Shown piece by piece: positions 37,915 to 42,397 of a stretch of DNA of 64,000 nt; position 1 is the first letter of the stretch; each line of letters starts with the position of its first letter. Source of the DNA: a virus. The stretch covers positions 1 through 64,000 of the IMG/VR virus record IMGVR_UViG_3300028029_000002; one strand, 5' to 3'. A program made the position numbers and the translations under genes. The notes under the pieces are model-generated. The model was not told where the DNA came from. It did no database searches and saw nothing but the letters and a program-made list of their open reading frames with translations.

Positions 37915-38262
37915 TTATTCCATAATTCTGTCTATGAGTACGGCGGTCATGATGTCTCCCCGCTCCACAAAATACAAACACACTTCTCCTTTGCAATATG
38001 GAGTCGTGATGTCCGGTGTGGCTTTGATCTCTATCTTCGGCGTTCGGATTTCTATTCCGTTCCCAGTTACTACCCGCGTGTAACGACGGATTGCTAGGTC
38101 TAACACGTTGCTCGGTAAGGCCATCGCCGAAAAGTCAATCTTGACCTCGCGGCGTAATCGCTTCACTCGCTCGTATGTCCCTCTGTCTATTATGTATACG
38201 AGATCGTCTCCAATATAAATGCCGTTCCCGCGTGGCGTGCTGACGAATGTTCCTTTTTTCAT
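37915..38262 (-). CDS. hypothetical protein (115 aa), first gene of the leftward operon
   Basis: RBS GGGAG. MKKGTFVSTPRGNGIYIGDDLVYIID...GNGIEIRT. Confidence 0.65.
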   Translation of the reverse strand: MKKGTFVSTPRGNGIYIGDDLVYIIDRGTYERVKRLRREVKIDFSAMALPSNVLDLAIRRYTRVVTGNGIEIRTPKIEIKATPDITTPYCKGEVCLYFVERGDIMTAVLIDRIME

Positions 38263-38289
38263 ACATACTCCCGGTACTGTGGTATTGAT

Positions 38290-38317
38290 AGTATAACACG
38301 GGTAGAGGGATTGTCTA
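38290..38317 (-). promoter_or_regulatory. sigma70-like leftward promoter (-35 TAGACA, 16 nt, TGt-TATACT)
   Basis: Minus strand reads TAGACAatccctctacccgTGtTATACT, 27 nt upstream of ATG 38262, in an AT-rich divergent region. Confidence 0.55.
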
Positions 38318-38427
38318 GTTTAAATTTTTTTTCGCGGGAAGAGAGGATTAGTGTCTGGTTCACGATGTCAAAGTGAACCGGGGGGTATCTTTATATCTCT
38401 CATGGACGCTTGGATGTTGTCAGCAAA

Positions 38428-38709
38428 CCCACCTAGCAATAGGAAGGGACAATAAGAACACAAGCCGGGACGCCTGATGAGGGAAATACCCGTGAAGTTG
38501 TTCGACCACCACGTTGTGATACTCGCGTGGCTAAACAAGTCTAGTATCACCCCACGTTTCACAGGGTAGCGTGGTTAATCTTCACCCTGGTGTCGTTGTT
38601 CGCCGTTGACAAAGCTTCGGTCAACCGCGTGTAGTATCCAGAAGCCGTTGTGCTGATGCCTCACCGCAAGGGAGGAACAAGTAGGCATGACGCAACCATG
38701 GAGGTTGAA
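38428..38709 (+). ncRNA. conserved structured leader element, copy 1
   Basis: Shares blocks with 39529..39817: an identical 21-mer, the loop ACGCCTGATGAGGGAA and an identical 38-mer. At least three helices show compensatory differences between copies. Confidence 0.6.
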
Positions 38710-39030
38710 ATGTATTCCAATAAAGAAATTCGTGCCACGTCGTCCGCTAAGGTTGTTCAGATGCTGTTTGTTATTGCTGCAATCATTGTGTTTGTGGCGA
38801 TAGCGGTTCCGTATGTTCTCTCGACCGTTCGCACGGTCGAAGTCGCCAGCGGTGGCGACTTAACGGCGGTGGGTTGTCAGGCGGAGTACACCACCTGGCA
38901 AGATGGGGGCGAATTCCCCTCACAGACGTGCTCCGAAAGCACGTCCGGTATTGAGTTGTGGTGTGAGAACCACAACGTTACCGATGGAAAAATGGCGCAG
39001 GCATGCGCCAACGTCAAGGCGGGTAAGTAA
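38710..39030 (+). CDS. membrane-anchored Cys-containing small protein (106 aa; start refined)
   Basis: GGAGGT-5 nt-ATG at 38710. TM segment VVQMLFVIAAIIVFVAIAVPYVL. Confidence 0.6.
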   Translation: MYSNKEIRATSSAKVVQMLFVIAAIIVFVAIAVPYVLSTVRTVEVASGGDLTAVGCQAEYTTWQDGGEFPSQTCSESTSGIELWCENHNVTDGKMAQACANVKAGK

Positions 39031-39031
39031 G

Positions 39032-39223
39032 ATGGCCCGCCTTGAAGCGTCATCGAACGGCGTGTTCCTCTTCACGTGGGAAGGGGAGATCGTGCGGGAG
39101 AAAACAGCCGCAGTGCGTTATGCGCTGTGGCACGGTGTCCGTATTTCAGCCGAGGCTCGGAAATTGCTTGCGGCTGAGATCGCCCTCGTCATGTCCGAAT
39201 TGGAGGCGCAGTATGACCTCTAA
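39032..39223 (+). CDS. hypothetical protein (63 aa)
   Basis: ATG lies 1 nt after the preceding stop; in-frame portion of track ORF 38903..39223. Confidence 0.45.
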   Translation: MARLEASSNGVFLFTWEGEIVREKTAAVRYALWHGVRISAEARKLLAAEIALVMSELEAQYDL

Positions 39224-39467
39224 TTCAGTCGTGGCGCACCGGGTCACACCAGACCCGGTGTTGGACGAATGGTTCCCCCGCCAGCATAACGTCAGTGCGA
39301 TTGACGTTATGCTGGCACACGCCCTGTCAGAGAAACGGCAGGGCGTTCGGGTTGAATGGGACGTGTATCAAGCGGCCCAGCACGAGGGGTATACCCTCAA
39401 GAACGTTGTGGTGGTGGGTGCGCCGATGCCCCCGAAGCCGCAACGGCGGGGGCTACGTTGGCGGTAG
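39213..39467 (+). CDS. hypothetical protein (84 aa)
   Basis: GGAGG-6 nt-ATG at 39213; in-frame portion of track ORF 39042..39467. Confidence 0.5.
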   Translation: MTSNSVVAHRVTPDPVLDEWFPRQHNVSAIDVMLAHALSEKRQGVRVEWDVYQAAQHEGYTLKNVVVVGAPMPPKPQRRGLRWR

Positions 39468-39484
39468 CCCCCATTCATGCGTAG

Positions 39485-39511
39485 CCCCCTCACATTGCGA
39501 TGTAGAGGGGG
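39485..39511 (+). terminator. terminator-like hairpin
   Basis: CCCCCTC(acat tgcg atgta)GAGGGGG followed by TTGGTGTTGG. Confidence 0.5.
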
Positions 39512-39528
39512 TTGGTGTTGGCATAAAG

Positions 39529-39817
39529 CCCACCTAGCAATAGGAAGGGCGTATATAGGACACTAGCCTGGGACGCCTGATGAGGGAAGTACCCAGGAAG
39601 CATGTCCGCACACCACGTATGTTCTGACGTGGCTAAACAATGTGCAGAACACCCCCACGTTCTATAGGGTAGCGTGGTTAATCTTCACCCTAGCGGATGT
39701 CCATCCAATCCATTGCAGAGATTACTCCGCTTGGCAATGTGTGCGTTAGGAGTTGCCGTGCTGATGCCTCACCGCAAGGGAGGAACAAGTAGGCACGGTA
39801 TGACCCAGGAGGTCGAA
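39529..39817 (+). ncRNA. conserved structured leader element, copy 2
   Basis: See copy 1. It precedes the RNAP-like gene directly and ends in GGAGGT-5 nt-ATG. Confidence 0.6.
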
Positions 39818-42097
39818 ATGTCCAAGATTTATAAAGCAGTAGAGTTGGTAGTTAAGAATACCTCGATCACGATTGAGGATAAGGGCAGCACTAATGCCGC
39901 CCGTGATGACCGCATGAAGCGGTACATCACATCCGAGGTAGAGAGAGAGTGTCTAGCCGCCCACATCGGGTGGTTGGACAGCAGCACTTTCGTCAGTATC
40001 CCCCACACGGGCGTCGATGGCAAAGCAATTGACGTTGACTCCTACCAGCAGTTATTGGTAGGGGCACAGGGTAGTGGCGTATTAGTCGCCACACAAAGTG
40101 GCGAAAAGGCGGGGAACTACATCCGCCTGACCGCCGAGGCGTGGGAGCGGTTCGCCGCGCCCCTGCGGGGGAAAGTCAGGGGCGCGAAAGCCTTGCAGGT
40201 GGCGGGGTTGTTATTCTCCGCCACGACGAAGGATCAATATTCCGTTGAGTCCGCAGTCGTCATCACCCCCGGCCATCCCCTTGACCGGGGGCAAGATGGT
40301 AATGGGATGGCCCCGAAATCCCTGACCCCCACCACCGTCCAGGTGCGGTTCGCCGCCCTGGACGCGGCTGGCGAAGTTGACGCCAGCCGTGTGGGTAAGG
40401 GGATTCTCAGCCCCACGTCCCCCGATGGGAGGGTGTATTTGCACCACTCCCAATTGAAAGGGGCATGGGACATTGCCCCCTGGGAAGAAGGACAAGAGGA
40501 AATCGTTGTCAGCGTCCTCGTTCTTCGGAATGAGGGCGTTTCCGCTGAGCGCATTATGCGCGACCCGGAGACCGGAAAGGTCTCACTCCGCGCAAAGCGG
40601 AGTTGGATGAGCAGTGAAGTCACCGCCCTCTTCTCACCGTCAGCCAATCTTCACCTGGCGGAAGGCGGGGAGGGGATTCATTCCCAGAAAGTCCGCCGTG
40701 AGGTCGAGAACCTCACGGGGATGTTCAGCGAGGAGGGGCGTGTTTCCCTTCTCAAACGCTGGGGCGGGCTAGAGTTGGACGAGGAGGGCCATTTGCTGCC
40801 CTCCAAGAACGCGGGCATTGAGGCTCTTCGTACCCCCCTGCCCTGGTGCAGGGAAGTAGAGGAATTGCTGGGGCGTTTCGCTGTACCAGAAGTGGTACAG
40901 ATAGCTCACGGGGCTGGCATCCCCGTGAAGGTATCGCTTCTCGTCCAAGACGAGAAGTACGGACGCAAGCCCATCTCCCTGAAAGCCGCCCTGAAGAGGG
41001 TGGCGGAAGGGAAGCGGGTTTGGGGACTCTATCGGGTTCCCGTAACGGGCACACAGGCGATCCAGTGGTTCACCCGCGCCCCTTATAAGAGGGGTATCGG
41101 GTTCGTGATCGCTCCGTCCGCCGCGAAAGGCATGGACGGGGATAGCGACGGAGACCCCGGATACCAAATTGACCCAAAGGACGCGCCCGCAGTGGCGCAG
41201 TCCCTGGATACGCGCTTGAGCGGGTCTGGCAAGCCCGCTAAACAGGCGAAGCCGGATTTTCCGCTCAATAGTATGTCCGTCTTGGAGTATTGGATGGACA
41301 TGCTTGTCCATCACCCCCTCGTGGGGCGTGCCACGACCCTGTCGTGGCGTCTCATGCGGGATGGTCGCCACGAGGACGCTGTGTTAGCGTCCACGGCGGC
41401 CAACGCCGCCCCGATGCTGGCGAAGCATCGGGTGGACATTGACGGCGAAGCCGTCTCCGACATCGTGTACCGTCTTTCGGAGGAGGAACGTGCCCGCGCT
41501 CCGAAGACCGGAGATGGATACTCCATCATTGCGCCATTGCAATGGCGCGATTGGAAGGCGGCGTCGAAGCCGCTCCGTTCCCTGCGCCAAATGGCGTGGG
41601 GCAACGGTTCCCCGGAGAGCGTTCTCGACGAGTTGTCCATCGTCGCCACCCGCGCTGTCGAAGCGTGGGCGGCGAAGCCCGTTGGGGAACTCACGTTCAG
41701 CCGCACCGCCCGGTTGGTCTTCGCCCGTCGAGGGCGGTTGTTGCCGGGATGGGCGGTGCGCTCCGCCGCTCGGATCCGGGCCGAGTGGGCGAACTTCTGG
41801 ATCGCCCACATCCGCCGCGAAGGAGATAAAGTCTCCTTCATCGGCAATGATTTTGATACGATCTACAACGCCGTCCGCGAGTGGGGCGCGGCGGCTGATG
41901 TAGAGAGTCTTGCGGCATTGATGTCGCACCGCCGCAAGAGCGGCGAATCAATGCGGCTCAAGTGGGCCGCAATCTTCGACACCCACCGAGGTGTCGAAGT
42001 GTTGGGCCTCCACCCAGCGGTGGAGGAGGCATTGGGCGCGGACTACAAACGCGCCAAGTTAGTGGACGCGCTGGTTGCGTCCCTTGAAGAGGAGTAA
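39818..42097 (+). CDS. YonO / RdRP-like single-subunit two-barrel RNA polymerase candidate (759 aa; start refined from 39674)
   Basis: Motif ...GLYRVPVTGTQAIQWF...GFVIAPSAAKGMDGDSDGD, with DSDGD encoded at 41141-41155. This resembles the R-x-P...aP....DxDGD catalytic loop of the DPBB RNAP/RdRP family. Size is similar to YonO. Confidence 0.55.
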   Translation: MSKIYKAVELVVKNTSITIEDKGSTNAARDDRMKRYITSEVERECLAAHIGWLDSSTFVSIPHTGVDGKAIDVDSYQQLLVGAQGSGVLVATQSGEKAGNYIRLTAEAWERFAAPLRGKVRGAKALQVAGLLFSATTKDQYSVESAVVITPGHPLDRGQDGNGMAPKSLTPTTVQVRFAALDAAGEVDASRVGKGILSPTSPDGRVYLHHSQLKGAWDIAPWEEGQEEIVVSVLVLRNEGVSAERIMRDPETGKVSLRAKRSWMSSEVTALFSPSANLHLAEGGEGIHSQKVRREVENLTGMFSEEGRVSLLKRWGGLELDEEGHLLPSKNAGIEALRTPLPWCREVEELLGRFAVPEVVQIAHGAGIPVKVSLLVQDEKYGRKPISLKAALKRVAEGKRVWGLYRVPVTGTQAIQWFTRAPYKRGIGFVIAPSAAKGMDGDSDGDPGYQIDPKDAPAVAQSLDTRLSGSGKPAKQAKPDFPLNSMSVLEYWMDMLVHHPLVGRATTLSWRLMRDGRHEDAVLASTAANAAPMLAKHRVDIDGEAVSDIVYRLSEEERARAPKTGDGYSIIAPLQWRDWKAASKPLRSLRQMAWGNGSPESVLDELSIVATRAVEAWAAKPVGELTFSRTARLVFARRGRLLPGWAVRSAARIRAEWANFWIAHIRREGDKVSFIGNDFDTIYNAVREWGAAADVESLAALMSHRRKSGESMRLKWAAIFDTHRGVEVLGLHPAVEEALGADYKRAKLVDALVASLEEE

Positions 42098-42397
42098 AAT
42101 CCTCCCCCCTGACACCGTGGGGGTCACAGCAAAGGTGTCGGTGCGCCGCATTGCGGTTCCTGTGCAACTCAGGATTAAAGCACCGTGTCGGTAGTCAAAC
42201 CGACGCTCAGGTTGGTGTAAGCAAGCATTTGCCGTGTCCTGACTTCCTGGGAAGCAGAACATAGCAAATGTGCGGTAGGACAACGGGACGATCTCCTGGG
42301 AGACGCGAAGTTGTTCCTGCCCGCTTGCACCAACCTGCCGCTCCACAGGAGTGGGGCCAGGGGTATGGTCAGCGATTGCGTAAGACCTCCTCCTTAA

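Follow-up and report, generated by a model that had tools for sequence, protein, structure and literature searches.

Alternating complementary pentamers in a twice-carried phage leader: a tentative case for two tandem H-type pseudoknots

Folded leaders and compact pseudoknots are documented in several systems. The leader of the T2/T4 gene 32, subject to autogenous translational control, provides an H-type pseudoknot in a phage mRNA leader. This knot (PDB 2TPK) has stems of 6–7 bp; a loop 1 of 1 nt bridges the deep groove of stem 2, and a longer loop runs along stem 1. It is a single knot that begins a leader otherwise unstructured and A/U-rich, and its reader is a single-strand-binding protein. 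The preQ1-I and SAM-II pseudoknot aptamers are also compact H-type knots, whose conserved recognition surface is built from stem 1 and loop 3, and tandem repetition of one unit is known among pseudoknot riboswitch aptamers. Head-to-tail H-type knots joined by short linkers, and maybe stacked as a rod, are found in tmRNA (PK1-4) and in the upstream pseudoknot domain of the tobamovirus 3' UTR. Lastly, phage HK022 carries two folded RNA copies in its early region, putL and putR, each heading an operon; the put RNAs are about 70 nt long and consist of two stem-loops without any pseudoknot.

The locus described here is a leader of about 300 nt that is found twice in a 64-kb window (the whole stretch of DNA that was analysed), the first part of a viral record of 80.6 kb that has direct terminal repeats. 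In each leader, the complementary words CCACG and CGTGG alternate. The best explanation, to which we give a probability of about 45%, is that these pentamers are RNA-level features closing two tandem H-type pseudoknots, hereafter units A and B. Unit A would come near the gene 32 knot, with a stem 1 of 5–6 bp, a loop 1 of 1–2 nt and a stem 2 of 7–8 bp. However, two knots would here occupy the centre of a 300-nt leader that is highly folded, shows no sequence similarity with the gene 32 leader and has no gene for a single-strand-binding protein downstream. A gene 32-type autoregulatory leader was rejected, as the knots are internal, the 120 nt downstream of them are folded with compensatory changes and the downstream genes match no Pfam or PHROGs family. 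Unlike the preQ1-I and SAM-II aptamers, which are widespread, the element has no Rfam match and no expression platform tied to the knots, and is present as two paralogues in one phage. It also differs in position and in neighbouring genes from the knot arrays of tmRNA and of the tobamovirus 3' UTR. As for the HK022 put RNAs, they share no sequence similarity with the element, which adjoins a start codon and not a promoter.

Contigs from three DNA metagenome runs (labels: epibiont, hydrothermal vent) are 100% identical over the stretch. All population contigs being identical, there are no population variants to compare, and no RNA run is listed among the sequencing runs that contain the stretch. 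The genes diverge near 38.3 kb: the leftward genes end at 38262, and the rightward genes, which start at 38710, comprise small ORFs of 106, 63 and 84 aa, then a 759-aa ORF at 39818. Searches of Pfam and PHROGs gave no family match for the three small ORFs or for the 759-aa ORF. We take the 759-aa protein to be a candidate single-chain two-barrel RNA polymerase; a G-D-x-D-G-D block is invariant in its six-member family, and a profile of this family, compared by sequence with solved structures, gave no match. The leaders and the hairpins at their 3' end are as follows:

38405-38709, plus strand: leader copy 1, a structured 5' untranslated region and paralogous block, ending in GGAGGT-N5-ATG, ahead of the start codon (38710) of the membrane-like 106-aa ORF of the small-ORF operon
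39506-39817, plus strand: leader copy 2, ahead of the 759-aa gene (start codon 39818), also ending in GGAGGT-N5-ATG
38650-38687, plus strand: 38-nt block identical in both copies, a GCAA-loop hairpin just 5' of the ribosome-binding site
38693-38707, plus strand: small hairpin CAACC-AUGGA-GGUUG, in which the ribosome-binding site is half-buried; one compensatory pair

The two copies share about 78% of their alignment columns, identical blocks of 13–38 bases (13, 26 and 38 nt) alternating with variable segments, and the indels of 1, 2 and 7 nt that separate them exclude a coding function. The structure that was counted consists of the RNAalifold helices plus the two knots. In this structure, 98.7% of cells are paired and 12 of the 77 pairs are compensatory, i.e. 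changed on both sides and still paired, compared with 0–1 in slid controls whose partners were moved by 1–3 columns. Furthermore, G.U pairs occupy about nine positions at which the other strand would give A.C. Together, these data point to an RNA structure of the plus strand, the fold being derived from the same two sequences on which it is judged. The folding energy of the whole leader is not unusual (z-scores of -0.38 and -1.66). The outer stem of the 38650-38687 hairpin contains two compensatory pairs. So does a helix that would close the knot domain (38503-06/38592-95), which is tentative and overlaps a neighbouring helix in copy 2. A pairing of GUGAAG (38492) with CUUCAC (38580) was discarded because it is not maintained, copy 2 having only 4 of the 6 bp that copy 1 can form.

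Upstream of leader copy 1, at 38357-38396, a hairpin (GGTTCAC-N9-GTGAACC) is followed by a run of six G and TATC. An equivalent layout (GTTCAC-N8-GTGAAC, G9, TATC) is located at the equivalent place in a related metagenomic locus, L003 (positions 564-596). As the scan of the leader region revealed no sigma-70-like rightward promoter, this conserved hairpin may be an early promoter or a regulatory site. Two other observations concern the 1.1-kb unit comprised between the identical 38-mers (38650-39795): its word depth reaches 61.8 in one sequencing run (X1), versus 38 elsewhere in the genome, and a 487-nt contig from another run (X3) links 39757 back to 38650 via the 38-mer. These reflect either a low-coverage assembly-graph effect of the repeat or variants in which the unit is tandemly duplicated.

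The pentamers, numbered here 1 to 4 from 5' to 3', are read directly from the sequence where an earlier note on this DNA had placed them: in copy 1, CCACG at 38509-13 and 38552-56, and CGTGG at 38526-30 and 38570-74. In copy 2, CCACG, CGTGG, CCACG and CGTGG start at 39613, 39628, 39655 and 39673, respectively. The order is therefore the same, as that note had claimed, but the start-to-start spacing is only nearly so (17/26/18 in copy 1, 15/27/18 in copy 2), the first distance changing from 17 to 15 because the length of the intervening stem differs between copies. The first CGTGG does lie inside the loop, 19 nt long, of the covarying helix 38516-23/38543-50. The second was correctly assigned to the loop of AGGGT...ACCCT, but this helix has 6 bp and not 5 (CAGGGT/ACCCTG, 38562-67/38584-89).

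The succession CCACG..CGTGG..CCACG is found only at these two places per strand in the window (0.03 expected), and alternation of all four words, seen at two sites of the 80.6-kb genome, was never produced in 300 first-order simulations. The words themselves are not enriched genome-wide (88 and 75 occurrences versus about 80 expected). As the two leaders are paralogues, the pattern counts as one independent event. The words belong to longer motifs, C[A/C]CCACGU[U/A] (motif X) and [G/A]CGUGG[C/U]UAA[A/U]C (motif Y). The complementary stretches, CCACGU(U) and (A)RCGUGG, hence exceed the pentamers, and any choice of X:Y partners would give 6–8 bp. A third, strongly folding cluster of five pentamers in 80 nt lies inside the 759-aa gene (41318-41395), with an 8-bp hairpin GCCACGAC/GTCGTGGC within CTCGTGG/CCACGAG. 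This hairpin is not kept in L003 or in another related locus, L004, where only the codon-forced GCCA/TGGC remains, and the cluster was taken as a coincidence.

The elements of the two units are given below, with copy 1 coordinates first:

38509-38514 (copy 2: 39613-39618), plus strand: X1, CCACGU, 5' strand of unit A stem 1, identical in the copies
38516-38523 (copy 2: UGUUCUG, 39620-39626), plus strand: 5' arm of unit A stem 2, GUGAUACU
38525-38530 (copy 2: ACGUGG, 39627-39632), plus strand: Y1, GCGUGG, 3' strand of unit A stem 1
38531-38542, plus strand: unit A loop 3, of 12 nt in each copy and beginning with 8 identical nt, CUAAACAA
38543-38550 (copy 2: CAGAACA, 39645-39651), plus strand: 3' arm of unit A stem 2, AGUAUCAC
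38552-38558 (copy 2: 39655-39661), plus strand: X2, CCACGUU, 5' strand of unit B stem 1
38562-38567 (copy 2: UAGGGU, 39665-39670), plus strand: 5' arm of unit B stem 2, CAGGGU
38568-38574 (copy 2: 39671-39677), plus strand: Y2, AGCGUGG, 3' strand of unit B stem 1, identical in the copies
38584-38589 (copy 2: ACCCUA, 39687-39692), plus strand: 3' arm of unit B stem 2, ACCCUG

Stem 2 covaries in both units. In unit A, it corresponds to the covarying helix mentioned above (8 bp in copy 1, 7 bp in copy 2) and includes three compensatory pairs; in unit B, it has 6 bp, the terminal pair of which changes from C-G to U-A (one compensatory pair). Stem 1 of unit A (X1:Y1) has five invariant pairs, the sixth changing from U.G to U-A. 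Its loop 1 (1–2 nt) would span a stem 2 of 7–8 bp and its loop 3 (12 nt) a stem of 5–6 bp, with an inter-stem linker of 1 nt in copy 1 and 0 nt in copy 2. In unit B, loop 1 (3–5 nt) would span 6 bp and loop 3 (9 nt) 5–7 bp, with a linker of 0 nt; this loop 3, UUAAUCUUC, is identical in the copies and lies directly 5' of the 3' arm of stem 2. When the domain is folded with nested pairs, the top folds of both copies also contain X2:Y2 as a 7-bp local hairpin. Over 38550-38589, the copies show only four differences: two in loop 1 and one on each side of a single stem-2 pair. Units A and B have motif X, motif Y and the first bases of loop 3 in common but not stem 2, which, judging from their sequences, suggests that one knot unit was duplicated internally long ago and that its stem 2 was free to drift.

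In both units and both copies, the strands succeed one another in the crossing order of an H-type pseudoknot, with perfect Watson-Crick cores. Judged by general rules and by known examples, the loop lengths appear comparable to those of solved pseudoknots. According to the general rules, the deep groove of stem 2 is spanned by loop 1, and the stems stack when the inter-helix loop does not exceed 1 nt (PMC6007934). A strict genome-wide scan of the plus strand for H-type layouts (at least 5 bp in stem 1 and 6 bp in stem 2, loop ranges as in the units) retrieved the four units and only two other sites, simulations giving about two sites per strand. Two adjacent sites that are repeated in a paralogue are therefore not attributable to chance. 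One of the two other sites (42104-42139) is located in a 450-nt non-coding stretch after the 759-aa gene.

The isolated hairpins 1:2 (-7.2 kcal/mol in copy 1, -8.3 in copy 2) and 3:4 (-8.6 and -7.7) are predicted to be as stable as the covarying stems of unit A (-7.0 and -6.1) and unit B (-7.9 and -5.8). In a nested model, the pentamer hairpins would compete with helices supported by the comparison of the copies; a pseudoknot would satisfy both. When the covarying stems were fixed and the rest refolded, using a crude model that ignores sterics, 1:2 plus 3:4 formed the best second layer in both copies (-17.8 in copy 1, -25.0 in copy 2). A layer combining 1:4 and 2:3 scored -17.4 in copy 1, i.e. 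0.4 kcal/mol behind the best, and was absent from the top suboptimal structures of copy 2. The earlier note proposed that each CGTGG can pair with either CCACG. This holds on paper, and 1:4 can feasibly coexist with the covarying helix. However, 2:3 clashes with it: the link across this 8-bp helix would be 1 nt long (3 nt in copy 2), so that 2:3 cannot coexist with the helix and was judged not feasible beside it. Only 1:2 plus 3:4 uses all four words and both covarying stems. The pseudoknots suggested by that note thus stand as the best model, given the topology, the apparently suitable loop lengths, the compensation in stem 2 and the best second layer in both copies. From this, we infer that the pentamer stems truly pair and that they do so as 1:2 and 3:4. 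The pentamer stems never vary and so offer no covariation of their own, and the G-to-A change at 38589, which maintains stem 2 of unit B, is compensated in a competing 4-bp helix too.

An unlikely but serious alternative is a nested fold in which ACCACGU (38508-14) would pair with GCGUGGU (38569-75). This 7–8-bp helix (1:4) would enclose the covarying hairpin and leave one knot only, with CAGGGU/ACCCUG, the inner words (the first CGTGG and the second CCACG) being unpaired or otherwise used. RNAalifold, which considers nested pairs only, prefers this 1:4 helix (7 bp) for the two-copy alignment, and 1:4 is the longest of the four possible duplexes, reaching 8 bp in copy 1. Single-sequence ensembles disagree with one another, giving 2:3 a probability of 0.62 in copy 1, and 1:2 one of 0.22 and 3:4 one of 0.33 in copy 2. 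However, the nested fold offers no reason why the two inner words are invariant, has to close a loop of about 55 nt and ranks below 1:2 plus 3:4 by score in both copies; it would also probably form later in synthesis than the local hairpins.

It is rather improbable that the words are conserved without pairing with each other, whether through single-stranded contacts with RNA or protein, tertiary contacts or gene conversion between the copies. Such a reading would account for the long identical blocks that surround the words (13, 26 and 38 nt), loop residues included, and the count of pairs gives no direct sign of pairing by the pentamers. However, identity forms a mosaic at the scale of 10–40 nt, interspersed with compensatory double changes, a pattern more suggestive of selection than of conversion tracts, and exact complementarity occurs in the right topology twice per leader.

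The earlier note also compared the architecture to that of riboswitches and attenuators, but we found no support for this half of the proposal. No terminator-like (intrinsic) site was found on the plus strand of either leader, nor any pairing between the pentamers and the ribosome-binding-site hairpin, which is self-contained and also precedes both homologous genes in L003, a relative devoid of the leader. Rfam 15 returned nothing over 38250-39850, either at gathering scores or at E up to 10, and the searches provided no homologue in which partners might be seen to exchange. Given the lack of terminator, ribosome-binding-site link and Rfam match, and the leaderless relative, a riboswitch or attenuator reading is unsupported. 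A true conformational switch, in which a ligand, a protein or the timing of transcription would shift the leader between 1:2 plus 3:4 and 1:4 and alter downstream expression, appears decidedly unlikely. In its favour, reuse of one pentamer pair in neighbouring knots invites mispairing unless exchange is intended, little energy separates the competing pairings of copy 1, and the nested ensembles are heterogeneous. However, besides the terminator, link and match that the leaders lack, they contain no antiterminator, and the internal duplication of one unit explains the identical words equally well. Near-equal energies and disagreeing ensembles are compatible with a switch without being evidence for it.

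Three overlapping G/C-rich hairpins (39445-39515) follow the third small ORF's stop codon, ahead of leader copy 2: GCCCCCG/CGGGGGC, GGGGGCTAC/GTAGCCCCC, and CCCCCTC/GAGGGGG followed by TTGGTGTT. As GTAGCCCCC is present twice in this stretch, the pairings are mutually exclusive, and these hairpins look more attenuator-like than the pentamers.

A DNA-level role of the words is very improbable. They would then form two inverted-repeat operators, to which a dimeric regulator of the early operons would bind as a DNA-binding protein; this would fit the fact that CCACG and CGTGG are one word on opposite strands, arranged in two convergent pairs. However, the spacer of the first pair changes from 12 to 10 bp between copies (better tolerated by a fold than by a rigid DNA site), the flanks match X with X and Y with Y but not across (only the complementary core being common), and a covarying helix occupies the space between half-sites. 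In addition, about 130 nt separate the sites from the likely promoter region upstream of them, and the surrounding helices contain G.U pairs.

Other identities were examined and rejected. The sequence CUGAUGA (38472-78) recalls a hammerhead ribozyme, but the region (38472-38497; 39576-39600 in copy 2) carries two extra bases and GAAG instead of GAAA, the GGG..CCC stem being followed by GUGAAG in copy 1 and by AGGAAG in copy 2, and it has no Rfam match; nor can a K-turn be recognized there, as the flanking stem has only 2 bp. A group I intron is opposed by the lack of Rfam match and by start codons that align with those of the relatives. A 31-codon frame (38477-38569, ATG to TAG) spans both knots of copy 1; an indel breaks it in copy 2, where about 16 codons are left, and it is therefore not a conserved leader peptide. 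Finally, ARAGORN detected no tRNA or tmRNA gene in 38000-40000.

Homologues of the leader were sought in several ways. Neither blastn and megablast searches of GenBank phages nor tblastn searches with the 759-aa protein provided any, and searches of IMG/VR with three exact conserved blocks yielded no further copies. Likewise, no homologue was found at polymerase-related loci of IMG/VR and GTDB genomes or at ribonucleotide reductase-related loci of IMG/VR, and nhmmer with a two-copy profile detected no further copy. When a covariance model of the knot domain was run with filters off against the whole genome and three relatives, only the two copies scored, the next-best matches having an E of 0.05 or worse and lying inside genes.

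A metagenome scan for relatives yielded three loci, L003, L004 and L005. In L003, the closest of them (polymerase 52% identical, same gene order), the leaders are only about 50–110 nt long and contain nothing resembling the 300-nt element. The same gene order without the leader implies that the latter is an accessory module and not a requirement of the operon. L004 (2860-2960) and L005 (1735-1850), whose polymerases are 44–46% identical, display a different folded leader of about 180 nt before the polymerase gene. In both loci, two hairpin loops of this leader are complementary over 7 nt (TATCCGG at 2886-92 and CCGGATA at 2951-57 in L004), which gives them the potential to form a kissing-loop complex, as judged from their sequences. 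L004 also contains non-coding modules (1-2400) repeated along about 3 kb upstream of the polymerase gene, including a GGCACGG-loop hairpin with differing stems in at least four copies (173, 571, 1718 and 2053) and a block of 50 nt found at both 945 and 2316. Repetition of folded leaders may be a trait of the clade.

If the pentamers close tandem pseudoknots, each unit would be laid out as CCACGU, 1–5 nt, the 5' arm of stem 2, 0–2 nt, RCGUGG, a loop of 9–12 nt and the 3' arm of stem 2. As the RNA is made from 5' to 3', the first structure to form may well be the local CCACGU:RCGUGG hairpin, and the strand made later would then pair with the loop of this hairpin. The product would be two knots, 1:2 with 38516-23/38543-50 and 3:4 with 38562-67/38584-89, separated by 1–3 nt. 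In the four units of the genome, stem 1 and the start of loop 3 are identical in sequence while stem 2 drifts, which suggests a recognition platform rather than a mere scaffold. The twin knots would thus be a repeated platform recognized by one trans-acting partner, which would co-regulate the translation or the stability of two early messages, one of them encoding the candidate RNA polymerase. The location of the whole leader directly 5' of two start codons suggests joint control by one such partner. Our guess is that it is more likely a protein than a small ligand, and putative autogenous control by the downstream polymerase is attractive. A further idea, which we regard as highly speculative, is that the twin knots are paired sensors of a new class of regulatory RNA, involving binding of a trans-factor, exchange of word partners and a flip of the leader between open and closed forms. 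The trans-factor, possibly the phage's own single-chain two-barrel RNA polymerase, would act on the stem 1/loop 3 surfaces, and the flip would set the levels of the polymerase and of the second early operon together.

An element without relatives permits neither the building of a family nor comparative testing, which limits its value as it stands. If the knots are real, however, this leader would be an uncatalogued, unusually large and modular control RNA. It would stand before genes with which a rare phage lineage starts its infection, among them the gene of a candidate cell-type single-chain RNA polymerase, and in it one folded unit, duplicated within and between leaders, would tie two messages to one signal.
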